64,000 bases of DNA from Obrimoposthia wandeli (taxonomy: Eukaryota). Shown here one piece after another: positions 1 to 59,255 of this stretch (position 1 is its first letter; every line of letters begins with the position of its first letter). Below the pieces are notes generated by a model, which was not told the DNA's origin, did not search any database, and saw only the letters and a program-made list of their open reading frames with translations. The translations under genes and the position numbers were made by a program. Location: positions 496,001-560,000 of the forward strand of contig CDROCS010000840.1 in assembly GCA_977020255.1 (NCBI GenBank). Direction: 5' to 3'.

Positions 1-161
1 TAATTGATTCATTTCAAGATGCAACTACTATTCCACATTGATACATTTTTATCGATTTTACTCAAGATTGTCCCGATGACTTTAGAGTTAGAACTGATGT
101 ATTCAATCCATCGGGAATAACCGTATATAAACAAACAAAGAAACCAGTTTCTCGAAGATGA
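1..161 (+). pseudogene. C-terminus of Polinton packaging ATPase (A32/FtsK-like), disrupted
   Basis: Manual translation IDSFQDATTIPH*YIFIDL-(frameshift)-TQDCPDDFRVRTDVFNPSGITVYKQTK... resembles the A.KDAT..PYGYL.IDL.Q.TPD.LRLRTNIF end of Polinton ATPases. Stop TGA 159-161 overlaps the next ATG. Confidence 0.75.
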
Positions 162-586
162 ATTTTAAAAAGGAAATTGTTAAACCTGAAGTTAAAAAAT
201 TGATTAAATCAGTTTTAAGTGCAAGGAAAATGGTTGCTCAAAAATCCAATAAGAAAAGAACTGCTGTTAAAAAATCTAGGAGTATTGCCTATTTCAATTC
301 TCTCATGCGTGCACCTGCTATTCGCCGCCCAGCTATTCTTAAATCATTCCCTACTTTTGTAATTGATGATTTACTTAATATGATACAGAAAATAGTTTCT
401 GGTAAAATAATTGTCAAGGCTAACATGAATCGGCATAAGAAACCTCTTCTTGCTTTGTTTCACGCTAAAACACGAATTGGTAAACGTAAGTTGCTTTATA
501 AGCAAAGTGGTGGATTTTTAAGATTTCTCGTACCAATTATTAGCTCAATAGTTGGTGCACTTGCTAGTAGACTAATAAAACGATGA
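158..586 (+). CDS. Basic pX-like virion protein with a C-terminal amphipathic peptide after a QSGG/F protease site
   Basis: Intact 142-aa Lys/Arg-rich ORF ending KRKLLYKQSGGFLRFLVPIISSIVGALASRLIKR, the pattern of adenovirus pX-like ORFs in Polintons. Confidence 0.7.
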   Translation: MNFKKEIVKPEVKKLIKSVLSARKMVAQKSNKKRTAVKKSRSIAYFNSLMRAPAIRRPAILKSFPTFVIDDLLNMIQKIVSGKIIVKANMNRHKKPLLALFHAKTRIGKRKLLYKQSGGFLRFLVPIISSIVGALASRLIKR

Positions 587-683
587 TTATAAACATAAAT
601 TCGAATCAATAATATGAATTTATATATGGGATCACTTTCATCTATTCCTAAATTAAATATAAAAATATAATCGTCTTGCTGCA

Positions 684-1713
684 ATGGAGAAAATATGGTT
701 CGATCCAAGTCGACCCCGTTGGTTACACAGGGGTTTCAAAATTAGCAAAAGAGTCAAAGAAGACAAAAAAGGAAACTCAGGCGTGGTTGAAAAATCAATT
801 AGCTTACAGCTTAAACAAACCAATGAGACGTCGGTTCCCAACGAGATCATACAAAACAAGCGGCCCGAATGATTTATGGCAAGCAGATTTGATGGAAATG
901 ATTCCGTATGCGAGTATTAACGACGGACATCGATATATTTTAACTTGTATTGATGTCTTTAGCAGATTCGCGCGAGCTATTCCATTAAAGTCTAAGTCTG
1001 ATACCGATGTTTTAGCCGCAATGAAGCTTTTGATTTAAGAAATAAAACCAAGAAGTTTCCAAACGGATAGTGGAAAGGAGTTTTATAATAAACATGTTAG
1101 TGCACTATTGAAAAAACATAATATTAATCATTACTCAGTATTTTCCCAATATAAAGCTGCCCTAGTTAAACGTTTTAATCGAACATTGAGAGATCGATTG
1201 AAAAAGTATTTCACAAAGCAGGGAAATAAGTCCTGGGTCACTGTTTTACCTCAAATAATACATGCATACAATCATACTGAACACTCATCGTTAGACCGGA
1301 AAAGACCCGTTTATGTTACAGATGAGAATGCTATGGAAATTTGGCAACGCCGTAACCAAAGTCAAGTTGTAAAGAAACCCAATTATAAAGTTGGTGATTA
1401 TGTACGTATTTCTCAAATTAGTACTACTCCTTTTATAAAGAATTTCAAAGAGAATTGGAGCGATGAAGTATTTCGTATAACTAAAATTGATAATAAACGT
1501 GTGCCGGTAATGTATTTCATTGAGGATGAAACAAATAATGTAATCACGGGTAAATTTTATCATGAGGAATTACAAGTCTTGCCTGAGAAACCAAATGTAT
1601 ATAGAATCCAAGAAATTTTAGAGACATAAGGTAGAGGAAAGCATAAACAATATCATGTTAAGTGGCATGGATATACTGAACCTAGTTGGATATTAGCTTC
1701 TCAAATAGAATGA
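684..1713 (+). pseudogene. Retroviral-type (rve) integrase with C-terminal chromodomain
   Basis: MEKIWFDPSRP-(+1 frameshift in CCCC near 716)-VGYTGVSKL...WQADL...YILTCIDVFSRFA...FQTDSGKEF...KRFNRTL. Stops at 1036-1038 and 1627-1629, then GRGKHKQYHVKWHGYTEPSWI (chromodomain) to TGA 1711-1713. Confidence 0.93.
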
Positions 1714-2732
1714 ACTCAATGTATGTTGTATTACCAAGTAATGGTTCGCCATTAACTCAGCCGAATAATACTGCTAATAGTTTTAGTATTGATTATCAAA
1801 GCTCAATCAATTTACCTGGTTCTTGGGAAGCTGCTCTTATGGAATTTTCTTTCAATTACTATCCTATATCTATTCAAAGTGAAACTGAGATTGAATATAT
1901 TACTCAACAAGAAGCTGATAAAGTAACTGATGTGACTTTACTATTTGATAAGGGTCAAATGGATTTGGCTCGTATTAAGTCAGGCGATGATTTCACAATC
2001 TTTTTAAATAAAGAGAATCGAATTCAAATTATGGGAAAACGGGATAATTTTGAAATAGTTTTTAATGATGAAATTGTTGCAGAACAATATGGATTTCTGC
2101 CTAACGTTGAAAAAGGAAAGCATGCGGTTTCGAAAATTATGGATAATCATGTCAAGTATCCGATAATTACATTCAAGATAAAAAACAGATTCCCTAAACG
2201 CGAGAGGAAAATATATTCAGTTCCCAATGATTTTCTTTTTGCCGATAGCGAAAGCATGTGTAAACATTTTAAAACAGTGTTACCAAATGTATTTGAAAAC
2301 TTTAAACTAGTTAATAAATTGATTCATTTCAAATTGAAATCTAATATTGATAAAGTTGTCATGGAAAAATCATTAGCCTCAATTATCGGTTTTGATGAAA
2401 ATGAATTTGAAAATAAAAAGGAGGTTTTCAAAGCAAAGATTATTCCTAAAATGACTAATGCATATAATCAGATTTATATCTACACGAGTATTACTGAACC
2501 AATATTCGTAGGAGGAAGAAAACTTCCCTTAATTAAAGCAATTTGGGTTCAACAGGAAAAGCACAAGTATGGTGATGTTATACATATTCCAATTGAAATT
2601 CCAATGTATATTCCAGTGAGTTCTTCTTCTATAAACAATATTGAAGTTAATATACGTAATGATTCTGGAAGATTAATTACATTTGCTTACGGAACTAAAA
2701 CAAGTTTAACGGTTCATTTTTGTAAATTATGA
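1710..2732 (+). CDS. Polinton minor capsid (penton/PZ-like) protein
   Basis: Intact ORF from ATG 1710: MNSMYVVLPSN...NTANSFSIDY..SINLPGSWEAALME at the start and QIYIYTSITEP..VG..KLPLI...YIPV...INNIEVNIRNDSG at the end, typical of Polinton PZ; located between integrase and major capsid. Confidence 0.8.
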   Translation: MNSMYVVLPSNGSPLTQPNNTANSFSIDYQSSINLPGSWEAALMEFSFNYYPISIQSETEIEYITQQEADKVTDVTLLFDKGQMDLARIKSGDDFTIFLNKENRIQIMGKRDNFEIVFNDEIVAEQYGFLPNVEKGKHAVSKIMDNHVKYPIITFKIKNRFPKRERKIYSVPNDFLFADSESMCKHFKTVLPNVFENFKLVNKLIHFKLKSNIDKVVMEKSLASIIGFDENEFENKKEVFKAKIIPKMTNAYNQIYIYTSITEPIFVGGRKLPLIKAIWVQQEKHKYGDVIHIPIEIPMYIPVSSSSINNIEVNIRNDSGRLITFAYGTKTSLTVHFCKL

Positions 2733-3091
2733 TTGATTCAAGTATAATCGATGCGTATAGTAAACCGATGCAAGGAGGTGATTTGCCTTATTTTGCGGGA
2801 AAACAGTATGGATCAGGATGGCTGAAGGTTTTTGGTTGCTTTGCTTTCCCACTACTCAAGCGACTCGGGAAATTTATTGCTAATGTTGGATCAAAATACT
2901 TGTCTGGTGATGAGAAATTTGTTCCCACACAAAAGGATGCAGCCTTGGATCAGGGGAATGAAAGTTTACCAAGTCTAGCTGAATATTTGAAAAAGAAAAC
3001 TCAAAAGGGAAGTGGTTATAAACGTAAGAAAACATCTAAAGCATCAGGTATAAACAAACGTTTGAAACTAGGTGGAACAATCTTTAAGTAA
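2729..3091 (+). CDS. Small virion core/membrane-active precursor protein
   Basis: Intact 120 aa with MQGG/D, QYGSG/W and QKGSG/Y motifs (candidate adenain sites), an amphipathic WLKVFGCFAFPLLKRLG segment and a basic C-terminus. Confidence 0.65.
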   Translation: MIDSSIIDAYSKPMQGGDLPYFAGKQYGSGWLKVFGCFAFPLLKRLGKFIANVGSKYLSGDEKFVPTQKDAALDQGNESLPSLAEYLKKKTQKGSGYKRKKTSKASGINKRLKLGGTIFK

Positions 3092-4320
3092 TGAGTTGTG
3101 CTAAAACTGAATTGTGTATATTCGATAAACCTATATCTCAGGTTGTGGTTGATAGTGCTAGTTTTGAAGAAATATTTCCGACAAATACGGTTAACGGGAC
3201 ATCTTCTCCGGATTTAGAATTCAATATTAATGGATCCAATACTCAATATCTTGATTTGAATGATAGTTTATTTCTCGTTAAATTGAAAGTTACAAAGGAA
3301 GGAGGAGGTGATTTGGATGATGATTTGGATATCAAATCAGTTAATTAAATGTTGCATACTCTTTTCAAGGATGTGATTCTCAGTCTCAATAATGTGAAAG
3401 TTGAGGGAAATAATACTAGCTACACCCATAAAGCAATGATTGAAACATTGCTGAATTACGGTAATGATACGAAATTGATTAATCTTGATGCAATTGGGTT
3501 TGATGATGATGAAAAAAGAAGAACTGCTTCGATTGCGAAATCTAAAGTATTGTCACTTTGTGGGAGTCTCCATTTGGATTTCTTTAAGCAACCAAAGTAT
3601 ATTTTACCCGGTGTAAGTGCACATATTCGAATGAAGAGAAATCCAGTAGGTTTTAGTGTTGTTTGCGCCGATACCAATAAAGCTGCAATTGAGATTACGG
3701 AAGCAAAACTGTTGGTTCGAAGAGTAAAGGTGGAACCATCTGTACTCGTTGCACATCGAATAGGGTTGGAGAAGCAAAATGCATGTTATCCTATTAGAAA
3801 AACTAATCTTGTTTCTCACGCTATCCCTACGGAGGCTCTATCTTATTACAAGGATCAGATATTTGGTGATATGCAACTTCCAAACTTTGTTTTAATTGCT
3901 TTCCAAAACACTTCTACCTATGGAGGTGAGTCTAAAAATGAGGTTTTTCAATTTGGACACATGAATGTGAGTTCAATTAAACTTGCACGAAATATTGATT
4001 ATCAAGAATCTTATACGAATGACTTTGAAAATAATGATTATGTGTTTTCTTATGTGCAATCTTTAATTAGAAATCTTGGTCATTTGGATAAGGATGCAAA
4101 TATTGAAATTTCAATGACTGATTTCAAGGACAAGTATACACTGTTCACATTTGTTCTCTCTCCTGATTTCGATATTAATCAAGCTCAAATCCCTAAACAG
4201 GGAAATTTGAAAGTAGAAATCAAGTTTTCAAAAGCACTTGAACATCCTACTAATATTATAATCTATGGAGTATTCGATTCTGAGGTTCAAATTACCAAGG
4301 GAGGAACAGTACTAGTATAA
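3091..4320 (+). pseudogene. Polinton major capsid protein (PY, double jelly-roll) with one in-frame stop
   Basis: MSCAKTELCIFDKP...YLDLNDS...N*MLHTLFKDV.L.LN...LHLDFFKQPKYILPGV...PNFVLIAF...LFTFVLSPD...GNLKVEIKFSKAL..PTNIIIYGVFD. The two ORFs are in frame across TAA 3346-3348. Confidence 0.9.
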
Positions 4321-4349
4321 ACAAAATGAAAACAATAAAGAAGATATAA

Positions 4350-4727
4350 ATGAAGTAAGTCAGTTTGAATTTATTAATTAATATATATTCTAGTTCGGAA
4401 GAGATAACAAAAAGCGGAAGAAAACTACTCGGTTCGCGTTTCAATGGAGTCTACAGTCTTGATCACATCCCCTCTTTGACTCGTTTAGGTGGATATGTAA
4501 TCAATACACATTCATCTAATTTGCGTGGTGAACATTGGATTGCAATACATGTTAAAGAAAATGAAATCTTTGTTTTTGACCCCTTTGGGATATATTACCC
4601 TTCTAAATTAGTATCTACAGTACTTGACTCTCGAAAGAAAGTACATTTTAGTAAGAAACATTATCAAAATGTTTTAACACAGTCATGTGGACAACTCTGT
4701 ATGCTTTGGTTAAAGCATAAACAATAG
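4350..4727 (+). CDS. Adenain-like cysteine maturation protease, spliced: exons 4350-4354 and 4394-4727
   Basis: GEHWIA...FDPFG...YQ...QSCGQLC catalytic H/D/Q/C pattern. ATGAA/GTAAGT...TTCTAG/T removes a 39-nt intron and yields in-frame MNSEEITKSGRKLLGSRFNGVYSLD. Confidence 0.9.
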
Positions 4728-4764
4728 ATATAAACAATATCAAATAAAATTATTGCTATAAAAA

Positions 4765-5253
4765 ATGTCTGTTTATTTAATTGATTTTGAAGCTTTTATT
4801 GATAATAATACTGAGTTTGTAATAAAAGAACTATGTATAATGGATCTGGATGCAATCTTCTATCCTAAACATTACGTTTTTAAAATGCAACCTATATGGG
4901 ACATGATGAATAGAAAATCAAGAAAAATAAATAGATATCTCATTAAGCATTACCATCGACTAAAACTAGTTGATGGTAATAGTTATTTCAAGATACAAGA
5001 AATAACTGAGAAAATAAAACGTTGTTGTGATGTATCCAAATCAATTTTCTATGTTTTGGATGAAAATAATGGAGCTAAAATAAAGACAATCAATAAATAT
5101 TTTCCTGAATTTAGAGTGATAAATTACTCGAAAACATTAAAACAATTAAATCCATCAAATATCAATTGTCCATATATTAAACATGGAGAGCATTGTGCAT
5201 ACAAGAAATGCTTTGCAGCTAGTTTGGATTATTTAAATATTAATGAAAAATAA
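4765..5253 (+). CDS. Conserved Polinton accessory ORF with DFE.F...IKEL start (possible DEDD/DnaQ-like fold) and C-terminal C/H cluster
   Basis: Intact 162 aa: YLIDFEAF...FVIKELC...HYVFK...NRYLIKHYHRL...CPYIKHGEHCAYKKC. Function not established from sequence. Confidence 0.6.
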   Translation: MSVYLIDFEAFIDNNTEFVIKELCIMDLDAIFYPKHYVFKMQPIWDMMNRKSRKINRYLIKHYHRLKLVDGNSYFKIQEITEKIKRCCDVSKSIFYVLDENNGAKIKTINKYFPEFRVINYSKTLKQLNPSNINCPYIKHGEHCAYKKCFAASLDYLNINEK

Positions 5254-5358
5254 ACTACTCACATCCTTCAGTAAACTATTTTCTATTCTGATTAAAATGA
5301 ATCTGATTAGTTTAAATAATGAATGAAACTGATTGGCTTAATACTAGCTCGAAAATAG

Positions 5359-5365
5359 TATATAA
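5359..5365 (+). promoter_or_regulatory. TATA box of the pPolB gene
   Basis: TATATAA about 50 nt upstream of ATG 5413, preceded by CTGATT/CTGATTGG (CCAAT-like) motifs. Confidence 0.45.
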
Positions 5366-5412
5366 GCAAGCATCAATCAACAAATAACTCTCTATTATAA
5401 ACGAAATTGAAA

Positions 5413-8400
5413 ATGGTAAGATTCTTGTTATTTCTATATTTATTATATTTATAGAATTGCAATATGAATAAACGACTATGCTTCGAGGAGAGTCACAAGG
5501 AATGTGACGAAAAAATGAAGAGCTACTTAAGGCAGAAGTTCAACGGACAACAATTTTACGTATGTCCAGTATGTCTCTCCGCGGAGGAGATTGATTGGGT
5601 AGAGTTTGTGGCACGTCATCGTGTCCATCTTCGTCATTTCCAGCAACGTTGTAAGAAGGCCATCTTTCAGAATAGATCTGCTTCTCCTGCTACTATTTCT
5701 CAAGTTCCGGTTGCTGCACCAGTATCTACTCCAATTGCTGCTGCTGTTTCAGTTGCTGCACCAATTACTTCTCCATTTGCTGCTGCACCAATTGCTTCTC
5801 CATCATCTGCTGCACCAATTACTATGCTTCATGTTATGCCTCCTCCAGTTGGTATGATCCCCGTGCCGTTACCAGCATCTACCCGCAAGAGAAGTGTTAT
5901 GCCCACTTCAGGTAGCTATGTTGCGAAGTTTTCCAGGGTTGATGCTGTTAAGCGTAAGACTAGTCTTCGGGGCACGATTGAGACATTGTCATTAGATGTT
6001 TCTAATGACAATGTCATCGATTTACAAGTTCCTGTATCACCTTTGACTAGCTTAAGAGACACAGTCAGCAAGTTTGCGACTTGCAAGGTTCAATTCGGGG
6101 TCAATATTGAAGAAACACGCGCTTGGAATTTTTCCAATAGAGGGCTCCCCATAGATGAGGGGTTTATAGATGCGGGAGTAGATGGGATCAACAAAAAGAT
6201 TGAAAATGATTCCCAAAGTAGCAGTAATTGGGTAGTGAACCGCTTCCTGGAGATTTCGTTTGTTGTAACTAAAACAACAACAATGAACTATCTCCAGGGG
6301 AGTAGTTATAAACCTACTCCATCTGAGTTAGCACTCTCACATTGCGTTATCAATATGCAGAACTCTAACACTTTTTGCTTCCTTTACAGTATCTTATCTG
6401 TACTTTTCCGCGAAGTATTTCGCTCTAATCCTCATCGGGTTACTCAATATGATGCCCTTTTGAGTCAATTAGTTTTTGATGAGAATGAGATGCCGATACG
6501 TCTATGTAATATACCGCGATTTGAGAGAAAGAATCCATCTCTCTCAATCAACGTATTTACATTCAATAGGTTATCTAATGTGCAAACAGATAGGGATATC
6601 TTCAAAAATCCCTATGTGGATGTCATATACAGGACCACAAACCCGGACGCTAAGGCAATCAATCTTCTCCTTTTAGAAAATAATGATAATTTTCATTATG
6701 TCGCTATTCCTAAACTCAATAGGCTGCTTAATTATAGGAACAGAGGTGTATCTAATCGCATCCAGTGTACTTGGTGCCATAAGTGTCTTCATAACATCCG
6801 GAGACCAATAAGTTACGACAAACACGTCCCGCTCTGTAGGATGAATTTAGATCATACAACACTTTATTCAATGCCTACAGAGAAGCATATTGAGTTTAAG
6901 GACTTTTTGAAAACGATTTCACCGCCTTTTGCTGTTTACGCGGACTTTGAAGCTGTGCTACCGCCGCATGGAATCCATCATCAGATTCAGCTTCCAATCT
7001 CGGCCGGTATGCTCATGTCTCCCGTTGCAGCTACGATAGGGTACACACATGATTACTCGGTCTTTACTGGGGAATCTTGTGTGGTATCCTTTTTGCAGAA
7101 ATTAGAGGACTTGGCGAAAGAGGTTGTACTCCCATGGTACAAGAAGCATGCGATTGAGGTGATGCGACAACTCACCCTGGAACAGGTATCGAGTTTCAAT
7201 GCCGCAAGAATCTGTTACCTGTGTAAGAAGAAACTCACAAAGAAAGTTCGAGATCACGATCACATGACTGGCGAATATCTGGGAGCAGCACATGCAAAAT
7301 GCAACTTATCAAGGAGACTCAATCGATCTTTTCCCGTCATTTTTCATAATCTGATGGGTTATGACATGCATCACATATTGAAACACGCACTGTGCATGTT
7401 TCCTGACTAGAATGTCTTTCTTATACCTCAATCAACAGAGAAATTTCAGGCTATGATGGTGTATATTGGAGGAGTCTGTATACGTTTCATCGATTCCCTT
7501 CAATTTTTGAACAGCGGCCTTGAAAAACTTGTGGAAAACCTGGGTGTGACTCCTCTAACACATTCGGTCTTCCCGCAACATCTGGTGAGCGCCAAGGAAA
7601 TCTTCCCATACGATATGGCAGTATCAGAGACTGCTCTTCGTGCAATCACCAGCTTACCGCCAAAGTGGGATGAAAAGATCAAACCAGCACAATATGAAAT
7701 GGCGAAGATGGTCTGGACTCAGAGCGGCTGCTCATCGCTCTGGGACTATATTCTGGTCTATATGAAGATGGACGTCTACCTTCTAGCAGACGTGTTTACA
7801 GCATTCTGGACCAAGGCCATTGCTGACGATGGATTGGAGCCACTAAATTTATTCTCCATCCCTGGTTTGTATTTTACTAATTTTTTCTAATTTTCACCAA
7901 GTAAAATTTAACCAAGTAATTTTTATTAAGTAACTTTTCACAAAGTAATGATTTTTACAATGATTTTAATAAATGTTTTATTTTCAGGACTGACTTTCGC
8001 GAGTGCTTTCAAATCCCTGCTTCATCCGGCTTCTTCTTCTTCTGCTCCTCCTGTGCGAGTCGAGCTAATACAGGATCCAGAGATGTACCGTCTTTTCCGT
8101 TCCGGGATTCGCGGGGGTATAACCTTTGTTAATGAACACCGCGTGGACGCCATCAATGGTACAGAACTTTTGTACATTGATGTAAATAATTTGTACGGGT
8201 GAGCTATCTCCCAGTTTTTACCTTGTGGTAACTTTTCCTGGGTGACTGATCGGTTAGAGTTGGGGAATATTATTTCCAGCTTAAAATCAGCAGATTTATC
8301 CTGTAGTCGCTTCGCTCATTTATTGGAAATAGATTTATCCATTCCCTTTGAGCTTCATAATAAATTCGACGATCTTCCCTTGCTACAATTAAACAGCGTC

Positions 8401-9415
8401 CACCAGGGTGTAAGACTGAAAAATTGTTATTAACGCATTACCATAAGAAACATTATGTTGTGCATTCTAGATTGCCACAAATGTACGTTAGACTTGGTGC
8501 TAAGGTAGATTTTGTATACAGAGCAATACAGTTTGAACAAACTAATGTTATTTCAAAATATATTAAGGATAATTCTCTCAAAAGAGCTGCGGCTACAACA
8601 GATTTCGAGCGGGATTATTATAATCTGAAAGTGAATTCTTTATTTGGAAAACTCATTGAGAATCTGATGAAAAGAATTAACCTCCGGATTTGTAATACTC
8701 CACAGAAGGTAGTTACCTATAGCAGTAAAGTCCACTTTCGTAGGACAATCGAAATCGATACGGACCTTATTGCAGTTTTACTGGATAAGGAAAATATTGT
8801 TTTGGATCGTCCTAGTTACATGGGCCAGGCAGTATTAGATTTAAGCAAACTTCGTATGTATGAGCTACAATATGAGCAGTTGGAGAAATATCGAGTTCAA
8901 TTTAACTGCGACATTAGAATTATAGCGGGTGACACTGATAGCTTTTTCTTGAAGTGTAATAATGTAAATGTTCAAGAATCACTGTTACCTGCTATGATTG
9001 CTGATGGACTGTTGGATACCTCGAAATTTCCAAAAACCCATCCGCTTTATACGACGCTTAATACAGCGATAGGAAAATTTAAAGATGAGAGTAAGGGATT
9101 ATTTAGTTATAGGCAAGGGATTTTTCTACGACCAAAATCATATAGCCTAGAGACTACAGAGGGTGAATCTCAGATGAGAGCGAAAGGTATTAGTCTCCGA
9201 CAGACGAGTATTAGACACTCTAATTACTTAGCTGTCTATGAGAGTGGCGTTAGCGAGCGTGTACAACAACAACGTATAAGCTCGCTAAATCATCAACTTT
9301 TACTGTAAGGTTAACTAAAATTGCCTTAAGCAGTAGTGATGATAAGCGCAAGTGGATGGAGAAAAACCGTTCAGTCGCCTATGGTCACTTTTTATACCCG
9401 GATGAGGTTGTATAA
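5413..9415 (+). pseudogene. Protein-primed family B DNA polymerase (pPolB) with N-terminal Zn finger, OTU-like Cys/His region and endonuclease VII-like insert; two introns; disrupted
   Basis: YADFEA (ExoI), RDHDHMTG..GAAH..CN, FHNL.GYD, RFIDS.QF, YIDVNNLYG, K..VNSLFGK, AGDTDSFF, GKFKDE, RPKSY, RAKG motifs. Introns 5416-5454 and 7865-7987. Trp codons mutated to stops at 7408-7410 and 8200-8202; frameshifts near 8400 and 9300. Confidence 0.95.
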
Positions 9416-9530
9416 ACTTTTTATATGTGTTGTACATATTTTTATTCTCCTTTGTGATTTTACGGAATATATGTGTTAGAAATACTTGTCTTTATTTTAA
9501 AATTATTGGTATTTACATAAATTTGCAGGT

Positions 9531-9750
9531 TTTTGCAATATAGATGCAGTACGTGACTGTCTTTGTAGGTATTGATTACTGTCTTTGTTAGACACTCTCT
9601 CTCACACACACACGTGACTGTCTTTGTTAGACACTCACACATATATATACATGCTTGTATAAGAATAAATGTAGTACTTGTTACTATTAATTACATAAAG
9701 ATGCAAGTATTTGCAATGTAGATGCAGTACGTGACTGTCTTTGTTAGATA
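9531..9750. repeat. Dispersed short direct repeats downstream of pPolB
   Basis: GATGCAGTACGTGACTGTCTTTG at ~9543 and ~9721, with partial GTGACTGTCTTTGTTAGACACTC copies between. Confidence 0.7.
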
Positions 9751-9929
9751 GATATAGGAACGTTTAAACATGATTATCCAATTATATAATACTTTATTTT
9801 ATAAGTAGATAATTTAATTTAAATAAATTATAAAACACACACACACACGATATGTATTTTGGTGAAGACTGCGTGTTAATACCACCTTTAGATAAAAAGA
9901 TATATAGTTTTAAAGAATGTTACTAAAAA

Positions 9930-10464
9930 TAGAATATGAGTCATCGATGAGTCATAGGATGAGTCATCGATGAGTCATCTTATGACCTGAGATTGACCTT
10001 AAATGACTTGTCCTCATGACGTCATGACCTTAACTTGACCTTAAAGTACATTGTCCTCATGACGTCATGACCTTAACTTGACATTAACTTGACTTGACCT
10101 CATGAGGTCATGACCTACATCTTGTCCTCACCGTGACCTTAACTTGTCCTTATGCTGTCATGTCCTCATCGTGACCTTAAGCTATGCTCAAAGGGGGGGG
10201 TATGCTCAAAATGTCTTTGTCCTGAAAGACTCACATCCCCGTACTGTATGTGTGTCTTTCAGGACAAAGACATTTTATCCTGAGCATAGGGGGGGTCATG
10301 ACCTCATGAGGTCATGACCTAGATTTTTTTCATGACCTCATGAGGTCAGGACCTACATCTTGACCTCACCGTGACCTTAACTTGACCTCAAAATTTTTGT
10401 CCTCAACTTGACCTGAGCTTGTCCTCAGGGGGGCTTTGTGCCAGAAGTCACACATCTACCTACT
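9930..10464. repeat. Putative right terminal inverted repeat / subterminal region of element A
   Basis: Dense TGAGTCA, TGACGTCA and TGACCT micro-repeats, G-runs, palindromes and a ~60-bp direct repeat, ending at ...CTACCTACT. The left TIR is not in the window, so TIR length cannot be fixed. Confidence 0.7.
10201..10288. repeat. Subterminal hairpin of element A
   Basis: 10208-10236 pairs with 10248-10276 (28/29 bp, 11-nt loop), plus outer TATGCTCA/TGAGCATA; flanked by G-runs. Confidence 0.9.
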
Positions 10465-13400
10465 GATGCACTCCATGCATTGGTTTCCAGTTATGTTAAG
10501 AAATATATGCAATGTGTTAATATGGGAGACAAACTAAACCATCTACAGATATTTGCTAACTTACTTAATGATAATATTTAAATATAATTTTATTTGTTAA
10601 TTTTTAAATTTTTTGATCGGTATATAAGTTGATGATTTTATAAAAAATTTATGGTAAAATTAAACCTGATCATAAAATATAAAAATTCATTAAAAAATTT
10701 AGCGAATTCACGTGGTAAAATTAATAAAAGAAACATTATTTACAATCAAAATGGATTCATAATGGCCATACTTCCCGTTATAGCATCTTTAATTGGTGGT
10801 CTTATAAGTTCAAGAAGTTAAAACTATGCAACAATGCAATTTTATTATATTTCTTAATAAAACTAATAACATTATATTAAGCCTATTCATCACTAAATTT
10901 TTTTTTAAATAATAACAATAATAAAATATATAATAACATTATGTTAAAATCAGCATACAAAGTAATATTAATAAAGAAAGAGAAACTTATATTGAATGTC
11001 GACTTATTATGTAAAGTAGATGCTCCCGATGTACCAGGGACCATTATTGTTGATGTTGATGTAGTTAACTGAGTTACATCAGGAATCATTACCGCGGATG
11101 CTAGTCTAAAACAATATTAAATATAATTAATTTTATTTAAAAAGAAACGAAATTGTAAATTAAATTTAATTGAAAATTCCAATTTATAATAAATATTATG
11201 ACAATTTAAATATTAATAATCATATAATATCTCAAATACTACAATTAAAATAAATTGTACCTATTTAAATTATGTTAGTTGCATCAATAACAAAAAATTA
11301 TAATAATATCAAATAATTACATTCTTTAGTTATATATATATATGCATATAAACAGATTAAAATATATTTAACTTTTATAAAAAATGGGAATAAACAATAC
11401 AAAGTTGTCTAATTTATTTATAAATTTCAATTATTCATGCTGTAATGGTATACAGGGTTAGAAAAATTGACAAAAAGAGTCAAACAATCGAAAACAAATA
11501 CACAAAAATGGTTAAGAAATGAATTATCATATAGTCTGAATAAACCTTTAAGGCGTAAATTCCCTACTATATCATATAAAACTAATGGTATTGATTTGTT
11601 ATAGCAGATGGATTTAATGGAAATGGTATTACTTCAGTAAATGAAGGATTTAAGTATATTTTAATACGTATTGATGTATTTAGTCGTTTTGCAAGGGCAG
11701 TTGGAGTTAAATCAAAATCAGGTATTGATTTATTACATTCAATAGAATCTTTATTAGTTGATGATGTACCAGTAAATATCCAAACTGATGAAGGTAAAGT
11801 ATTTTTTAATTCACATGTTAAGAAATTATTCAAAATTGAAAATATTAATCATTATTCAGTATATTCTCAATATAAAGCTGCAGTAGTTAAAATATGTAAT
11901 AGAACGTTAAGAAAACGGCTAAAGAAATAGTTTACTAAGCAAAGTAATAAGAAATTAATGAATGTATTACCAAAAATTATTTGTGCTTATAATAGTTCTA
12001 AACATAGAGGTTTAGATGATTTAAAACCTGTAGATGTAAATAATAAAAATGCATTTGAAATTTGGTTGAAACAAAATCCATAAGAAAAGAAAGTTAAATC
12101 TAAAATTTATGATTATGTTCGAATATCCAAAATAAGTACAAGTCCATTTATCAAAAAATTTAATCAAAATTGGAGTGATGAAGTTTTTCAAATTCATAAT
12201 ATTAATTATAAACAAAATCCAATAATATATATTTTAAAAGATATTGATAACGTCATCATCAAAGGAAAATTTTATAAACAAGAGTTACAATTAATTGATA
12301 AATCTAAACTATATCGAATACAAGAAATTTTAGAAACTAAATGTCGTGGTAAGAATAAACAATATTACGTAAAGAGGCATGGATACTCTGAACCTTCTTG
12401 GATATTTGCTTTTCAAATTGAATAATGTCAAAATATATTAATTTATCTAGTAACAGTTGTCCGACAACTCAACCTAGCACTACAGCCAATCAATTTATTG
12501 TAGATTGGGAAAACTCTCTAAATTTAGATGGTGAATGTTGTGGAAATTCGAAACTTTAGAAGAATCAAAAATTATAGGTTTTAATGAAATACAAAAAATG
12601 TCTAGTCATATGATGAAATTGTTGGCATAAATAAAAATATTCATGCTAAAATGAGAATTACAATTTATTCTTTAGCTGAATATGAATACGAAGTAAAATT
12701 TGATCAAAATTATTTGATACAAGATAGTTCTTCATTATGTAATATTATAGCCAGTAAATGCAAAGAGGTTTTAAAATCTGTATTATAGATTCAAATGGAT
12801 TATTTGATATTGTAATAAAGAAAAATGTAAAATCAGTTTTATTTGACGAAAAACTAGCTTCTTTATTAGGTTTAAATAATGTTTTCTTTGAGAAACGAAT
12901 TAAAGGTTTTCAAGAACCAAAACTTTCTAGTTCATATAATCAAATGTATATTTATACTAGTTTAACAGATTCTGTCTTAGTAGGATCTGATTATGTTCCA
13001 CTGTTAAAGTCTATTGGGTTAAAATTATTAAAATAACGATATGGAGATGTAGTACATGTTAAAATTATAATTACGTAAAGTATAAACAAGATAAATATAT
13101 TTAAAATATAAAAATGAATACATTAATTATAAAATTTTATAGCAAAAGTTAACAGGGCGGCGAACTTCCTTATTTCATTGTTAAACAATATGGCTCTGGT
13201 TGGTTACAAACTATTTCTAGATTTGCTATTCCATTCATTAAAAATGTTGGTTTAGCAGCTGCTAATGTATTTGGCGAAACGGCATGAACTGCGTTAACAA
13301 ATCCAAAAAACTTAATTTCATCTCTCAAAGAAAATACAGTCAAAGAAGTCAAAACTTTGACTCCAAAATTAAAAAATAATGTTTTTGAGAGTTTAAATAA

Positions 13401-14580
13401 AGTCACAAATTGTGTTGAACAAAATGGAAAGAGTCTTAAACGTAAAAGAAATAATTTAAATAGTATAAACAAACGTCTTAAAGGTACTTTTTTCCAAAAT
13501 TTCTAGTGTAAAATCTGAATTGTGTATTTTTGATAGACCATTACCTCAAGTAGTGATTGAAAATTCAAGTTTTGAAGAAATATTTCCAATCAATTCAATT
13601 ACTGAAAATTTAAATGACATAGAATTTAATATTCATGCATCTGAAGAAGATTATCTGGATTTGAATGATACTTTGATAAATATTAAATTAAAAATTGTAA
13701 ATGAAGTTGGTACTGATTTAATGAAAGATAGCGATGTAACTCCATAGAATTACATGTTTCAAACTCTGTTTAGAGATGTTATTCTAACATTTAATAATGT
13801 AAAGATTGAAGGAGGTAATGAATCGTATACTCATACGGCTATATTCGATACTCTTTTGAATTTTAGTAGTGATACCAAGTATACTAACCTTGAATGCCCT
13901 GGGTATGATGATGATGCAGAAATTCGTAAACAATGGATTAGTGAATCTAAAATATTTTCATTGTAAAATTCAATTTGATTAGATTTCTTTGATCAACCAA
14001 AATATTTAATTCCATGGATTTATATTCATTTGAGATTTATGAGAAATCAGCATAATTTTTCGCTCTATTCAGAAACTTCAAAACCAATTCTTAAAATTCT
14101 AGATGTCAGATTGTATGTTAGACGAGTTAAAGTTGATGCTTCAATAATGATTGGACATCAGTTAGGTTTGCAAAGTCAGAATGCAGTTTACCCAGTTAGA
14201 AAAACTCAGCTAGTAACATATTGAATTCCTTAGGGTTCTTTGGAACTTAATAAAGATTAAATATTTGAAGATTATAGTTTACCAAAGTTCATATTGATTG
14301 CTTTCAAAGCTACACTTCAGGGTGGTAAGGAATATAAAGTTACATCTTCTATGTTAAATACATTTAATACATTTAAGGTTTCAACAATATAATTAATTAT
14401 AAATACTGATTATCGAGAGACTTATAATCTAAATAATTTTAAAAAATTCATTAGCATATATGCAGTAAATTATTCGAAATATGAATCTTTTAGATAAAAA
14501 CTTGAATAATGGTATCAGATTATCTGATTTAAAATCAGGAAGTTCAATTTTTACTTTTCTATTAGTACCAGATTTTTTTA
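10465..14580 (+). mobile_element. Decayed Polinton family B fragment, copy 1 (pX-like, integrase, minor capsid, core, major capsid remnants)
   Basis: NQNGFIMAILPVIASLIGG (~10750), IDVFSRFA and chromodomain KRHGYSEPSW (~11670-12420), QMYIYTSLTDS..VG, QYGSGWLQTISRF, KSELCIFDRPLPQ...LDLND...LFRDV, FTFLLVPDF; many stops and frameshifts. Confidence 0.88.
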
Positions 14581-15666
14581 CGATTGTAAATGGACTAATG
14601 GATTCCTTTCAAAGATCTCCATTTTTCCCAGATTGTCAGGTTATCACCGAGCAATTTTCACTTATTCAATAAATTAATTTTCGGGGTTTATCTTCTTTTT
14701 TCGGGCGTTTTCACATTGTTTTCCATATTTTTATACGTCTTTCTAATGACCTTTTCAATGTCTTCATTTTTTCAAACTCATATTTTAATTAATTTTATTA
14801 TTTTTAAAATATTTATTAATTTTCTATCAACCTTGAATGTTTTTAAGGTTAATTTCCTACTATAAATAATTCTTATTATTTATTTTATTTTCACTTTTCC
14901 TAATTTAACAATAGTCCCTTAAAATTTTATATCAGATTAAGGTAAGAATTTATTTTTGACCAATCCAAAATGGAAATATTATTAGCTTTTAATCATTATT
15001 CTAAAGATTTTGATATTTGTATGGTGAAATTGTCATGTTATATCTTATTTTCATTAAATATTTCAAAACTTACATAAAACAATATATTCAATATTAATGT
15101 AAATCCATCACAATCAATTGAAATTCTCAAAGTTTAAGTAACATTTGCAGAATAAACATTCTCAACAAAAGGGCAAGAACAATATCTTTTTTGAACGTCA
15201 TGGAAAATTTCAAAAATATGAAATCAGGAAATAAACATGAATCAAAAGGTTAATAAAGCCTCTTGTGAATTAGTTAGATATCTCAAAAGAACAGATTTAT
15301 TTCAGTTTCTTCTATTTATTTCTATACTCAGAAACATGGAGGCTTTCAAATGCAAAATTAAAACTATCCATTTAATTCACTACTAGTACATATAGTAAAC
15401 TTTTAAATTCAATAAAGAAGCATAATTTACAATTTACAAAATTATGTAATATAAAATGTTCAAATTACAATGTTACAAAATATTTAATAATTTCATCTGA
15501 TTCTATACTAAAAAACATAATAAATACTTGCACGATAATGTATTAATAAATAATTTTCATGTTTATAATCTTGTTATAACCAATTAAGTTTGATAATATT
15601 TTGGCGTGTATTTAAGTATCGTAAGTTTCAATTTTCGCGGATTGTTATTTTCATTTTCGTTTTAAG

Positions 15667-15956
15667 ATGTCTGCAAAACCCCAATTAAAATATCTTGGTG
15701 CTAGTTATCGGAAGAAAAGTGTTGCCGTGGCGTTGGTAATAAGTTTTTTTGCGGCGGGTAATTTTTGGTATTTTCATCATATGAAGAAAATGCAAGCTTA
15801 TGAAGATTTTTACAAGTACATTTTCACATTTTGGCATTTTGAATAATTTGTTATAGAAATTATGAACCTGAAAAGGCAAGAAAACGTCTTATTGAGTCTG
15901 GTATTTTAAACTCCTATGATAGAGACGGTCGATTCAGAATTGAAAAATTTCAATGA
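15667..15956 (+). CDS. COX6C: Cytochrome c oxidase subunit 6C-like host gene, exons 15667-15815 and 15857-15956 (82 aa)
   Basis: MSAKPQLKYLG...single TM segment...KKMQAYEDFYK/NYEPEKARKRLIESGILNS matches the COX6C KPQ..L...AYADFYRNYD......M...GIF.S pattern. A 41-nt GT-AG intron restores the frame. Confidence 0.78.
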
Positions 15957-23169: not shown

Positions 23170-23973
23170 TTAATGTAGTTTCTCGTTGCAGAAAATACAG
23201 AGGTCGACCTTGGAACCACTGAAAATGATATTGTTCGTCGCTGGGTTCAGTTGTAATGGCAAGCTTCTTGTTAATATATAAACTTTGAGCATTTGCATTA
23301 ATTCTTTCACTTCTTCTTCACTTACGTTTACGATTTCACAAATATGATCAAGAATAAGTGAGTGCGTATAATCATCTTGTTGATCTTCAAATATAAAATT
23401 ACTCTTCCCATAAATTTCATTTAGTGTGCCAAAAAGACGGGCAATTGTTTCTAATTCTAAGGAAATATTTTCCAAATTAATTTTGCATTTACCAACAATC
23501 TCTGAGTTTGGATATCTTTCCATTATCTCGGTGATTTCAGCATACGTTTCCTCAAATGAATCATTAAACTGTGATAATATTTCAAACAATTTTTCCAAAA
23601 TGTCATTGAAGTTTTTAATTCCGAACCGTAGTTCAACATCCCTAACAACCAGAAGACTCGAGTAGACTTGTAGAGCTTCTGCTAGACAAGCCAGCAACTC
23701 TTTGATACCTTTATTCGACTCAGTGATTAGTTCATGGCATTTAGCTTCTTTTTTCTCTTCTAGTAAGATGAACAAGCTAATTTTGCGTCGCTTTACATTC
23801 TCAGTCTCGAAGACGTATTCCAAAACTGTTCGGCAATATGGACAAGTGTTGGCTTTGACCAACCATGTGACTATGCACAGTTTGTGGAAGCGGTGGCTAC
23901 AGCTCGTGTCATAGTAATCTTCTGTCTCAATAGGCTCAATACAAATACTGCAATCATCTTTTGTCGTATCCAT
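23170..23973 (-). CDS. Intronless RING-H2 finger protein (putative E3 ligase) with helical C-terminal region
   Basis: MDTTKDD-CSICIE...CSHRFHKLCIVTWL..ANTCPYCR (C3H2C3); intact ORF of about 267 aa from the second Met. Confidence 0.85.
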   Translation of the reverse strand: MDTTKDDCSICIEPIETEDYYDTSCSHRFHKLCIVTWLVKANTCPYCRTVLEYVFETENVKRRKISLFILLEEKKEAKCHELITESNKGIKELLACLAEALQVYSSLLVVRDVELRFGIKNFNDILEKLFEILSQFNDSFEETYAEITEIMERYPNSEIVGKCKINLENISLELETIARLFGTLNEIYGKSNFIFEDQQDDYTHSLILDHICEIVNVSEEEVKELMQMLKVYILTRSLPLQLNPATNNIIFSGSKVDLCIFCNEKLH

Positions 23974-24897
23974 AATTTGTGATTTAGGCTTATGAAAAAT
24001 ACAACACAAATAAAATTGCAGGAAAATAATATTGAAAATGTTATTAATTATAATTTATTCTATTGGTCAAATTGAAATTTCATGTAATAGATATATTGCA
24101 TTGTATAAAATGTAGACTTCTAACTTCTATTTGAATGTGCTACTCATTTTTGTTCTGATATTAAGTTCTTCTCATAAAAGGTTGACAATGAGGTTCTCCG
24201 ATTTTGAGTCGTATTTTTTATTTAATTAATATTAGGATTTGTATCAAGAAGCAATCGGAAGAGACCATTAAATCAAACTCATCCACAGTGTAGAAATAGC
24301 TACGCAAAAATGCAATTATAATGGAATATAATGATCAAATTTGTAAATTGTAGAAAAAAGCCTTTATCAATAAAATATAAAAGCGCTAAATATCTGTGGC
24401 TTCTTGCTTTTGAAACTACTGACATTCACTTTAAAAATTCAGTTGCGATCAAAAGGTTTATCCAGGAGGAAAGAGAAAGCAAATGTTGTATTCACACATT
24501 AAAATAATAAAAAGTCTACGAAATATAAATTGAAATAAAAGCTTTAAATTATTATTTTAAAATACATTTTATAAAAATTTGTTTGAAGAATTACCATAAG
24601 TTTTCGATAATAATTATATCTATGAAGGTCACTTGCTTAATTTATACCACAGTTTTCTATATAATCAATTGTTTTATCTGCTCTGTGAACCGGAGCTCCA
24701 TCTTGATTAAAATTCAAGTTGTAATTTAATAACATTGCTTTAACTTTATTGATATATGCTCTGATGGACATTTAATCAACGAGTAATGTCAATCATAATT
24801 TGACAACCACAAAAAATTATTGATATTGAATGTTTCGCGGGTTTTGTATATATATATAAATCGTTACCCTTCGTTTTTCTAAATTCTTTTCGACGTG

Positions 24898-24913: not shown

Positions 24914-26339
24914 CCGAGACATACATACACGTTTCAACTGCACAAGAGCAGTTTACTGATGGCAGATAATGCAGTGGTCAAGGTAGCGAAATTGGAAGAT
25001 TAAGCGAGTAGGATACTTGAATTCCATCAAGAGTGAGTTCGAGCAGGTGCCTACGATTCTTATCCTGTCATTTAGGTTCGCTTCTGAAATCCCAAATTGT
25101 CCTAGCTTTTACCTACTGTAGCATACCACCGCCACTAAATCATTATATATGACTAATAATTTTATATTAAAATTATAATTGTTTTCTTAAACTTAGCGCC
25201 TCTTCTACACTCATCGCAAAAACTATTCCAATCCCATTTTACACCTATTAAAACTGAATATCTCATAGTGCACTCATAGGGCTCAAATACCCGAGAGGAC
25301 ATCTAAGGGCCAATGAGGACTCTTTGAGCGGAGCGATATATTTAAAGGGTCGCAAAAATTCTTATCTGAATATGTACAAGTGTTAGTTCAACCTTAAAGT
25401 TATAAAGTAAAGATAATCGTACGCAAAACTTTGTTTCATGAGAGATGAAACGCATTCATTTTTATCAGTTATATTTTTATGCTAATTAAAAGTTGAAATA
25501 ATTTTCTTTTCTTGATTTACTTTGGATCGTTTTCGAAAAACAACACAAATTTTTACAGAGGTAACTTTCAAAATTTAAAAATAAAATCTTTTTATTTTCC
25601 AAAGGCGTTTAAAAACTTTGCTGTTCTATCCATGAAGGAATTTCAGGTAATAAAATGTATTTACTGGTCCAAGAAATAAACCATGCTAACTATTTTATTT
25701 TCAGTAAAGTTTTCCTTTATGTAAAATATTATTCATATTTCCAAATCCAATGAAAATTGCTATGTCGGATTTCACATGCGCTTAATTCCATTTCCCACTA
25801 CAGTCATCGAAGTGTGTGCTTCCGTTTGATGGACTGTTGAGGAACCTGGCATATTGACTCTGATTAATGCACATGCGTTATCTTTAGGAGAGAAAAGGAG
25901 AAGAAATGATGCACTCCATGCATTGGTTTCCAGTTATGTTAAGAAATATATGCAATGTGTTAATATGGGAGACAAACTAAACCATCTACAGATATTTGCT
26001 AACTTACTTAATGATAATATTTAAATATAATTTTATTTGTTAATTTTTAAATTTTTTGATCGGTATATAAGTTGATGATTTTATAAAAAATTTATGGTAA
26101 AATTAAACCTGATCATAAAATATAAAAATTCATTAAAAAATTTAGCGAATTCACGTGGTAAAATTAATAAAAGAAACATTATTTTCAATCAAAATGGATT
26201 CATAATGGCCATACTTCCCGTTACAGCATCTTTAATTGGTGGTCTTATAAGTTCAAGAAGTTAAAACTATGCAACAATGCAATTTTATTATATTTCTTAA
26301 TAAAACTAATAACATTATATTAAGCCTATTCATCACTAA

Positions 26340-26680
26340 AAAAATTTAAAAATAATAACAATAATAACAATAATAAAATATATAATTATATAATAACATT
26401 GTGTTAGAATCAGCATACAAAGTAACATTAATAAAGAAAGAGAAACTTACATTAAATGTTGACTTATTATGTAAAGTAGATGCTCCAGATGTACCTGGGA
26501 CCATTATTGTTGATGTTGATGTAGTTAACTGAGTTACATCAGGAATCATTACCGCGGCTGCTAGTCTAAAACAATATTAAATATAATTAATTTTTTTAAT
26601 TACTTTTTATGTTTCTTACTCTGCATATGAGCATCCATTGAATATTTATTCATTGATCCTGTTTGGCATATTTTACATTT
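26340..26680 (-). CDS. Small spliced C2H2 (matrin/U1-like) zinc-finger gene inside family B, antisense between pX and integrase
   Basis: KCKICQTGSMNKYSMDAHMQSKKHK (C-x2-C-x12-H-x5-H) joins in frame, via a 38-nt GT-AG intron (26566-26603), to LAAAVMIPDVTQLTTSTSTIMVPG...STFN/GTAAGT. Start exon unclear. Confidence 0.55.
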
Positions 26681-29600: not shown

Positions 29601-30534
29601 CCAAAATATTTAATTTTATGGATTTATATTCATTTGAGATTTATGAGAAATCAGCATAATTTTTCGCTCTATTCAGAAACTTCAAAACCAATTCTTAAAA
29701 TTCTAGATGTCAGATTGTATGTTAGACGAGTTAAAGTTGATGCTTCAATAATGATTGGACATCAGTTAGGTTTGCAAAGTCAGAATGCAGTTTACCCAGT
29801 TAGAAAAACTCAGCTAGTAACATATTGAATTCCTCAGGGTTCTTTGGAACTTAATAAAGATTAAATATTTGAAGATTATAGTTTACCAAAGTTCATATTG
29901 ATTGCTTTCAAAGCTATACTTCAGAGTGGTAAGGAATATAAAGTTACATCTTCTACGTTAAATACATTTAATACATTTAAGGTTTCAACAATATGTTAGG
30001 TTTAAGAATTAGGAAATTAAAATAATTAGTCGATTAAATACTAAAATAAAAATCCTTGAAAGCAAGGTTGAAAATTAAATAAAATATTAATTTTAGATTC
30101 AAAATTAAAATTAGTGGAAGTTAGGATAAAAATTAGGAGGACCACGAAGGTCGTGTATAGTGTAGGATATATAAGTTTAGAGTTAATTAACCAAAAGTGC
30201 AAAAAGCAAAAGGGAACAATTTGGAAATAAAGAAAATTACGAACGTCAATCAAAGAAACGGTAAGCACATTTTCGTGCAGTAAGTTAATCGATTTATTTT
30301 AGCTCTTGATATATTTCAGCTGTCCAATATTGCTGACTGACAGCCCATAATCCCGTAAAAACAGGAATTATTTCAGCTGTCAACATTACTGATTGACAGC
30401 CAGAGATTACAGAAATCAACTATAAAAGTCGCTACCAAACCAATTACAGGGACACAACAGACAAAATAGAACCAGCAGAAAAGCCAGTAAGTCAAGTTGG
30501 TGAATTAAATTGAATTAAATTAATTTAGAATTGT

Positions 30535-58600: not shown

Positions 58601-59074
58601 ACCACTAACGTATCCAATTTAGCAACAGGAGCCGTACTCAATCAGATTGTCACCGAAAAAATATCCCCACTAGCAATTTTCTCAAAAAAACTAAAGACAC
58701 ACCAAATCAAATCTTCAACATATAACCGCGAATTACTAGCCATTTATCAAGCCACCAAACAATTCGAAAATCAACTAGTAGACAAAACATTCACCACTTA
58801 CACCGACTACAAACCTCTAATACACGCATTACATATGAAAAATCCGACACCAAGACAACAACGACAACTAAACTATATCTCCCAATTCAACACAACAATT
58901 AAATATATTCCAGGTTCCATGAACATTATAGCAGATACGTTATCTAGACCATCCGAATTATACGAAATAAACACAATCGATAACCTCTTACAACCACACG
59001 AAATCATCGGGAAACAAGAACTACATAAATTCACACGTAGTTCATACAACTTCACAATGTTCAACAATATATGA
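55651..59074 (+). mobile_element. Ty3/Gypsy retrotransposon (CsRN1/Kabuki-like), decayed, truncated after RNase H
   Basis: Putative LTR from TGTTGCC 55651, gag from ~56207, protease FLIDSGSSLSLI (~57280), RT KVRPL...WASAL...GEW.CCGDYRALN..T.PDAYPL, RNase H LAIFSKKL...STYNRELLAIY...YTDYKPL; no integrase. Confidence 0.9.
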
Positions 59075-59079
59075 GAAGT

Positions 59080-59255
59080 GTAAAGTTCGGTTCTAAAACA
59101 ATAGCACACAAAGAACTACCCCCCGAACAAGGAACGAGGAACAAAGCACATCTGGAATTCGCTTAGTCATTCAGATGTGCTTTGTTCCTCGTTCCTTGTT
59201 CGGGGGTGAGGGGGGTAGTTCTTTGTGTGCTATTGTTTTTGAACCGACACTTTAC
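59080..59255. repeat. Long subterminal hairpin of element C
   Basis: 59080-59154 pairs with 59172-59255 (about 75 bp, 17-nt loop, one ~8-nt bulge on the right arm and two small mismatches or indels). Confidence 0.92.

Follow-up and report, generated by a model that had tools for sequence, protein, structure and literature searches.

The DNA analysed here (the window) is a stretch of 64,000 nucleotides (nt) from a contig of Obrimoposthia wandeli (CDROCS010000840.1, positions 496,001 to 560,000, forward strand), and all positions below are counted from its first letter. From position 1 to about 10,400 it contains the right part of a mobile element, the left end of which lies outside the window and which we assign to the Polintons/Mavericks from its gene content (Table 1). 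In this element, the genes for the maturation protease and for the protein-primed family B polymerase (pPolB) both carry a 39-nt candidate intron directly at their start. The comparison with related elements indicates that the protease intron is a real spliceosomal intron, that it is old and that it is inherited with the element, while the intron at the start of pPolB is probably real and of more recent origin.

Table 1. Features of the Polinton/Maverick element and host introns in the window.
Feature	Position	Strand	Remarks
Upstream core genes	1..4320	+	ATPase end, small basic open reading frame (ORF), rve integrase, putative penton, small ORF, double jelly-roll capsid
TATA-like motif ATAAACAA	4317..4324	+	33 nt upstream of protease ATG, overlaps capsid stop; putative core promoter
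Protease exon 1	4350..4354	+	ATG and two bases of codon 2; ATGAA before donor in 11/11 carriers
Protease intron	4355..4393	+	phase 2, GT-AG, 39 nt, 82% AT; position conserved across clade
Protease exon 2	4394..4727	+	adenain-type cysteine protease domain
Neighbour gene after protease	4762..5253	+	no Pfam family; same place in 9 relative loci
pPolB exon 1	5413..5415	+	ATG only
pPolB start intron	5416..5454	+	phase 0, GT-AG, 39 nt; not in L001, L002, L004
pPolB exon 2	5455..7864	+	Cys/His N-terminal cluster, low-complexity linker, HNH/endonuclease VII domain; stop at 7408
Third intron	7865..7987	+	123 nt, phase 1, GT-AG, within conserved pPolB coding sequence; missed by initial annotation
pPolB remainder	7988..9308	+	in pieces in window copy
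Host COX6C intron	15816..15856	+	41 nt; gene identity by Pfam
Host MRG15 introns	47601-47564, 47516-47477	-	38 nt and 40 nt, exon between; gene identity by Pfam

Results

Gene content and state of the element

Metagenome contigs yielded 29 loci related to the element, among which L004 appears intact, with open frames for the ATPase, integrase, capsid, protease exon 2 and a pPolB of 1298 codons. The copy in the window is decayed, as shown by premature stops in the integrase (1036 and 1627), the capsid (3346) and pPolB (7408). Only the final 32 residues of the packaging ATPase lie in the window; they are 69% identical to the L004 gene, which matches Pox_A32 (E 4.8e-6). The rve integrase was recognised in both elements (PF00665, E 2.7e-7 in the window and 1.4e-12 in L004). 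The protease belongs to the adenain-type cysteine proteases (PF00770, E 3.4e-4), and its family profile matches the adenovirus proteinase 1avp (E 1.8e-7). The capsid protein of the window is 55% identical to that of L004, for which the predicted structure (pLDDT 83.9) matches the capsids of iridovirus, PBCV-1, mavirus and Sputnik (E 1e-14 to 1e-16), so that on this model the gene encodes a double jelly-roll major capsid protein. The polymerase domain PF03175 is weak in the window fragment (E 0.012), clear in a second element of the window described below (E 6.8e-8) and present in many of the closest pPolB homologues. In addition, PF02945 identifies an HNH/endonuclease VII domain in the pPolB of L004 (E 1.4e-4) and of the window (E 0.0075). 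Pfam finds no OTU-like domain in the 1298-residue pPolB of L004; the adintovirus study used structure-level detection for this domain (PMC8502044). No Pfam family matched the putative penton gene of the window or of L004, which we tentatively take to be a penton gene from its position.

The protease reading frame depends on removal of the intron

The initial annotation had proposed two GT..AG segments of 39 nt as spliceosomal introns, and both were recovered with exactly the coordinates given there; each begins with GTAAG and ends with TAG. It had also proposed that splicing supplies the start of the protease, and the reading frames agree: without the intron, the gene comprises 112 codons and no stop, and the unspliced frame reads Met-Lys-stop. 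The same Met-Lys-stop is found in all eleven intron-bearing sequences, i.e. the window and ten related loci, because the stop is made by the bases of the donor itself. In exon 2 of the window copy, the first in-frame Met is residue 103, which lies past the catalytic His (residue 47) and Cys. Among the eleven carriers, this Met is located downstream of the catalytic His in nine and at residue 27 in the remaining two (L005 and L012). With an in-frame stop at the donor and the next Met usually past the catalytic His, a full protease can be expected only from a spliced message; splicing is thus very probably required, and the elements would need the splicing machinery of their hosts. Consistent with these reading frames, intronless protease homologues place their Met at exactly the register that splicing gives, two or three residues ahead of the first full codon of exon 2. 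A short upstream ORF at 4326 was considered as the true start of the protease and rejected, since its ATG is not common to the relatives compared.

A search for ATG followed by zero to two bases and a GTRAG..YAG segment of 36-46 nt with at least 75% AT gave two matches in positions 1-10,400, both at these two gene starts. In 1000 approximate dinucleotide shuffles, the same pattern occurred 0.011 times on average and never twice, although the pattern was chosen after the data had been seen and has one further match elsewhere in the window, at 17082 on the minus strand.

The protease intron is shared by a deep clade of elements

Ten of the 29 related loci (L001-L009 and L012), representing six lineages, or seven with the window, carry an intron at the same phase-2 site, with ATGAA followed by GT..AG. 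In all of the 17 more distant loci examined, an uninterrupted Met is found near the intron register; of the other two loci, L010 begins just before the acceptor and shows the acceptor end only, and the weak match L029 was left out. The ten introns are 37, 38, 39, 39, 39, 41, 42, 43, 43 and 43 nt long, and six of them are not multiples of three, so that the frame would be broken unless they are spliced, in genes that are otherwise open. These lengths bear directly on the idea that neither 39-nt segment is an intron, and that both arose as in-frame insertions of 13 codons or through decay of a dead element. It is true that all three introns of the window have lengths divisible by three (39, 39 and 123 nt) and that stops occur elsewhere in the element. 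However, the homologous introns of 37, 38, 41 and 43 nt disrupt the frame in loci with open genes, which refutes this explanation for the protease, and the intact-looking L004 also carries the intron (39 nt). For the two segments together we regard it as hardly credible.

All eleven protease introns have GT..AG ends, a donor-like 5' hexamer and a pyrimidine-rich 3' end, with TAG as acceptor in seven, CAG in two and AAG in two. Only these ends are conserved; the interiors of the relatives are 55-67% identical to the window, about the level of AT-rich background. A comparison of related copies had been proposed by the initial annotation as a check of the spliceosomal origin, and for the protease it gave the expected picture of a constant GT/AG position with drifting length and interior. 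The drift is also visible between close relatives: L001 and L002 agree at 94% of exon positions and at 72% of those in the intron interior, their introns differ by 1 nt in length, and among 110 protease codons 15 differ synonymously and 5 non-synonymously. L003 and L004 differ by 2 nt in the intron and are the same over the first 240 exon bases.

In a capsid tree of 20 rows, which excludes some near-duplicates and the loci with insufficient capsid sequence, nine carriers are separated from the 11 other rows by a single branch with a support of 100/100. The intron-bearing elements share only about 45-60% capsid protein identity. A protease tree of 35 rows, with one row per near-identical locus pair and bootstrap values that had not fully settled, contains a clade of 20 rows (support 97/83) that holds all carriers together with proteins that have a leader or a truncated N-terminus. 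Four such gene-caller proteins (P0002, P0004, P0007 and P0009) have hydrophobic leaders ending in N-S or F-S at the column of the acceptor, which is compatible with YAG|Y, and five further proteins of the clade are N-truncated. Taken together, these comparisons argue that the protease intron is spliceosomal, old and inherited with the element. The initial annotation had seen in the introns a sign of long residence in this host lineage, and this is supported in part, in that the protease intron predates the split of the elements. Scans of viral contigs with the protease, the protease alignment and the pPolB of L004 found no relative, and none was found in contigs of prokaryote genomes.

The intron at the start of pPolB is not shared by relatives

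In pPolB, the unspliced ATG at 5413 runs into an in-frame TAG, in line with the initial annotation. A second in-frame ATG is located at 5464, three codons past the acceptor, and upstream of it position 5458 encodes a Cys that is invariant in the five pPolB N-termini aligned. In the full-length homologues P0164, P0165, P0170, P0172 and P0176 this Cys lies within five residues of the Met. In the three relatives with DNA at this place (L001, L002 and L004) the start intron is absent and the ATG runs directly into the Cys/His cluster. We therefore rejected a conserved pPolB start intron. Because splicing supplies the conserved N-terminal Cys, the intron is probably real in the window, and its absence from the three relatives makes it a separate, later gain.

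The alternative for this intron alone is that 5416-5454 is never spliced and represents an AT-rich leader behind a TATA-like site at 5397, with translation starting at ATG 5464. This ATG is in frame and has an A at -3, the site at 5397, 16 nt upstream of ATG 5413, is a perfect TATAAAC, and the position of the intron is not shared by relatives. On the other hand, a start at 5464 would lose the invariant Cys that stands near the Met in the five full-length homologues, and the segment has a strong donor and acceptor, is of host-class length and is rare by chance. In addition, ATG 5413 is preceded at a distance of 52 nt by another TATA-like site (about 5361, one mismatch), close to the 46-51 nt seen in relatives. 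We consider an unspliced pPolB start distinctly improbable.

The initial annotation had treated the two start introns as a matched pair, and this view did not hold: protease introns of relatives vary from 37 to 43 nt, the interiors of the two window introns share 14 of 30 bases, which is no more than shuffled sequences do (p=0.20), and the pPolB intron is unshared. A common origin as members of an introner-type family and a special meaning of the 39 nt or of a length divisible by three were rejected on the same data, and we regard the shared length as coincidence as far as these comparisons go.

Other polymerase introns point to continuing turnover

At the site of the third intron of the window, the coding sequence is uninterrupted in L004, in the second element of the window and in 35 of the 41 closest pPolB proteins; the other six were not matched by the motif used and stay unclassified. 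That second element is a divergent, broken Polinton pPolB without the 7865 intron (63,681-60,098, minus strand), in which the Cys/His N-terminus is preceded, in fusion, by a 48-residue peptide with LRGG at its end. This ending recalls a ubiquitin-type cleavage site, and a ubiquitin-like reading of the peptide found no support in Pfam or the PDB.

The 5' part of pPolB in L001 contains five other introns of 42-46 nt; once these are removed, 888 codons can be read without a stop. L002 has introns at the first four of these positions before its contig ends. The number of pPolB introns thus varies by element from none to five or more. On sequence grounds, the best reading is that the pPolB introns are separate, later gains amid ongoing intron turnover in this branch. 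In the low-complexity linker of pPolB, the exons that follow these introns begin near-identically (L001 2069-2243, L002 from 1953), which suggests that the linker introns of L001 and L002 were multiplied by tandem duplication of exon-intron units.

The element introns fall into the short size class of the host

The host introns of 38, 40 and 41 nt in MRG15 and COX6C that the initial annotation had named were confirmed, and with them its assignment of the element introns to the short size class of the host: protease introns range from 37 to 43 nt and the host introns from 38 to 46 nt. The host also has longer introns, such as one of 328 nt in MRG15. A 46-nt GT..AAG candidate intron at 15,621-15,666 ends directly at the ATG of COX6C.

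Discussion

Proposed transcription and splicing of the element genes

The sequence motif ATAAAC is found 31-35 nt upstream of the protease ATG in all eleven carriers, compared with one of 13 intronless loci checked. In relatives it sits inside the end of the capsid gene, and its counterpart in the window overlaps the stop codon of that gene and is followed by a 29-nt spacer, yet the distance to the ATG is kept. In L004 and L008, many other genes have this motif 32-41 nt upstream, and some have it 67-98 nt upstream. If it is a TATA box with the usual spacing to the transcription start, the first exon of the protease would be only about 10-15 nt long.

We consider it likely that these elements carry a nuclear gene set that is spliced constitutively by the host, in which the protease intron is inherited and the pPolB introns are later gains. 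The genes would be transcribed singly in the host nucleus, each from a ATAAACAA motif some 30-50 nt ahead of its start, and their messages would pass through the host spliceosome. The phase-2 intron in codon 2 of the maturation-protease gene would have been gained in an ancestor of the branch, as its conservation suggests, and would since have been spliced like the mini-introns of the host and held at the minimal length of the host. Its retention may be explained by two constraints, because decay of the intron would kill the gene and because a 5' exon of about 10-15 nt should make exact loss rare; a modest benefit for expression may contribute. Several observations weigh against this interpretation. 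In the decayed window copy, the introns may have fallen out of use. The ATG at 5464 and the second TATA-like site at 5397 allow an unspliced start of pPolB. We infer the promoter role of the motif and the length of exon 1 from sequence. Finally, three of the 20 rows in the protease clade (P0005, P0008 and P0010) start with an uninterrupted Met; these proteins may represent exact intron losses, sequences of spliced-RNA origin or basal lineages.

Introns close to the cap can raise gene expression, a concept known as intron-mediated enhancement, and the protease intron could have been kept mainly because it increases transcription, export or message stability. It adjoins the presumed transcription start, it was retained across a deep clade, and an independent gain occurred directly after the pPolB ATG of the window. 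Conserved cellular genes, e.g. those for ribosomal proteins, are enriched in start-codon introns (PMC1626468). However, in the intact loci no such intron is found in the gene for the capsid protein, which should be the most abundant product; the intron at the pPolB start is missing from all three relatives with DNA, and the protease intron was apparently lost within the clade. Selection for enhancement as the main cause is a minor possibility in our view.

In adenovirus late genes, including the message for the protease, a shared non-coding leader is spliced to acceptors upstream of whole ORFs. The homologous maturation protease thus depends on host splicing there as well, whereas in the present elements the reading frame itself is interrupted by a local mini-intron, and every gene apparently has a promoter of its own. 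It is conceivable that the protease intron acts as a regulated gate, being retained early and spliced late, or left unspliced on read-through transcripts from the capsid gene. Met-Lys-stop would then be a decoy on such transcripts, and regulated removal of the 37-43-nt intron would time or dose the protease. The unspliced reading is indeed Met-Lys-stop in all eleven sequences. In all ten intron-bearing relatives the protease ATG lies -1 to +4 nt from the capsid stop, which makes reinitiation after read-through possible. Moreover, capsid, integrase and ATPase of L004 and L008 are open without introns, so that the intron sits in the only gene of the structural module for which timing matters. 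Against this, the stop arises incidentally from a phase-2 donor consensus, nothing in the intron is conserved beyond its ends, three proteins within the clade are apparently intronless, and the ATG-at-stop arrangement also occurs in most intronless relatives. A gate of this kind appears rather improbable to us. If it existed, the branch would have evolved, independently, a minimal equivalent of the late splicing control in adenovirus, and would be tied to hosts whose spliceosome copes with such short introns. Both the enhancer and the gate partly overlap with constitutive splicing, which we continue to prefer.

Relation to introns in other Polintons and in cellular genes

The following comparisons refer to the available portions of the papers cited. 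Animal Polintons/Mavericks and adintoviruses have the same set of pPolB, integrase, ATPase, protease and capsid and many decayed copies (PMC8097293; bioRxiv 10.1101/2022.07.12.499685; PMC8502044). Intact vertebrate Mavericks are described as having no introns (PMC8097293, citing Kapitonov and Jurka, 2006), and in nematode Mavericks the core genes are intronless and introns occur in cargo genes (bioRxiv 10.1101/2022.07.12.499685). In contrast to these intronless core genes, the elements described here contain a protease intron inherited across the clade and variable pPolB introns. Other studies called genes on the assumption that introns are absent (PMC10120064; PMC9356565). Spliceosomal introns are not mentioned in the portions available of PMC8502044 or bioRxiv 10.1101/2023.08.22.554363, nor are introns in Polinton genes in those of PMC12220804, 10.64898/2026.07.28.741278, PMC5803895, PMC11296320, 10.64898/2026.10.13.758929 and 10.1101/2022.07.28.501842. 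In this literature, with subscription journals, Repbase entries and supplements outside its scope, we found no report of a conserved intron in a Polinton protease. Judged by gene content, the element is a member of the Polintons/Mavericks that differs from those described in carrying inherited spliceosomal introns in core genes, a class of genes usually described as intronless. pPolB2-class Polintons with an HNH insertion (bioRxiv 10.1101/2023.08.22.554363) resemble the present elements, at the level of domains, in the combination of pPolB with HNH/endonuclease VII.

Spliceosomal-type introns inside integrated Polinton-like elements have been described in dinoflagellates, where maverick-polinton-like elements contain introners (PMC11957031). 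Those introners are recent, derived from transposons and mostly inserted after integration of the element, whereas the protease intron is of old date and was inherited with the element, and between the two 39-nt introns of the window no relationship was detectable. Introns at start codons are known from cellular genes such as those for ribosomal proteins; the pPolB intron of the window similarly lies in phase 0 between codons 1 and 2, and the conserved protease intron differs from them in its phase-2 position within codon 2 (PMC1626468).

An intron at one site across a deep clade that includes an intact-looking element argues for nuclear transcription by the host and for long-standing splicing. 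Several papers regard the core genes as free of introns and use ORF callers to screen for them. In public protein sets, the N-terminus of the protease is wrong in nine of the 12 clade members known as protein only. As a well-defined marker, the intron site also lends itself to dating when introns were gained and lost in a mobile genome, and with it one can ask whether intron size follows the host.

Further features of the element and the window

The product of the neighbour gene behind the protease contains an acidic D-x-E motif; Atlas places it with unnamed arthropod-rich clusters (0.97), with a Maelstrom/DEDD-type nuclease as a weak lead (0.87). Between 9,930 and 10,440 the window contains dense palindromic and 43-nt repeats built from TCATGA/TGACCT units, with a 29-bp hairpin at 10,208-10,276, and this stretch may be the right end of the element. 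The arrangement of genes varies among relatives: in L004, L007 and L010 pPolB is oriented towards the capsid module, in the window, L001 and L002 it lies downstream of that module, and two penton-like genes stand in tandem in L003 and L004 (4390-6440 in L004), with a single one in other elements. A short ORF beginning with Met-Gly-Asn overlaps the integrase start in a different frame (L004 ~3290-3490, L008 ~1777-2052) and has left a decayed trace at ~627-670 of the window; in L008 it starts 32 nt past the ATAAACAA motif. From this start, we presume a possible myristoylated protein.

Two copies of a fragment from a third Polinton, comprising integrase, a penton-like gene and capsid, are found at 10,464-14,390 and 25,907-29,994 and are 95-98% identical; both end before the protease, so that they do not provide a second copy of the intron site. 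Between them, an uninterrupted ORF of 294 codons encodes a RING-finger protein (23,170-24,054, minus strand), which could be cargo of an element. MRG15 extends over about 10 kb (47,650-37,990, minus strand), with 5' exons that look AT-rich and a GC-richer exon for the MRG domain, and one of its introns contains a transposase-like fragment at about 40 kb. At 56,300-59,100 lies a decayed gag/pol region that resembles a long terminal repeat (LTR) retrotransposon; it matches reverse transcriptase and RNase H, and its strands are strongly skewed in composition.

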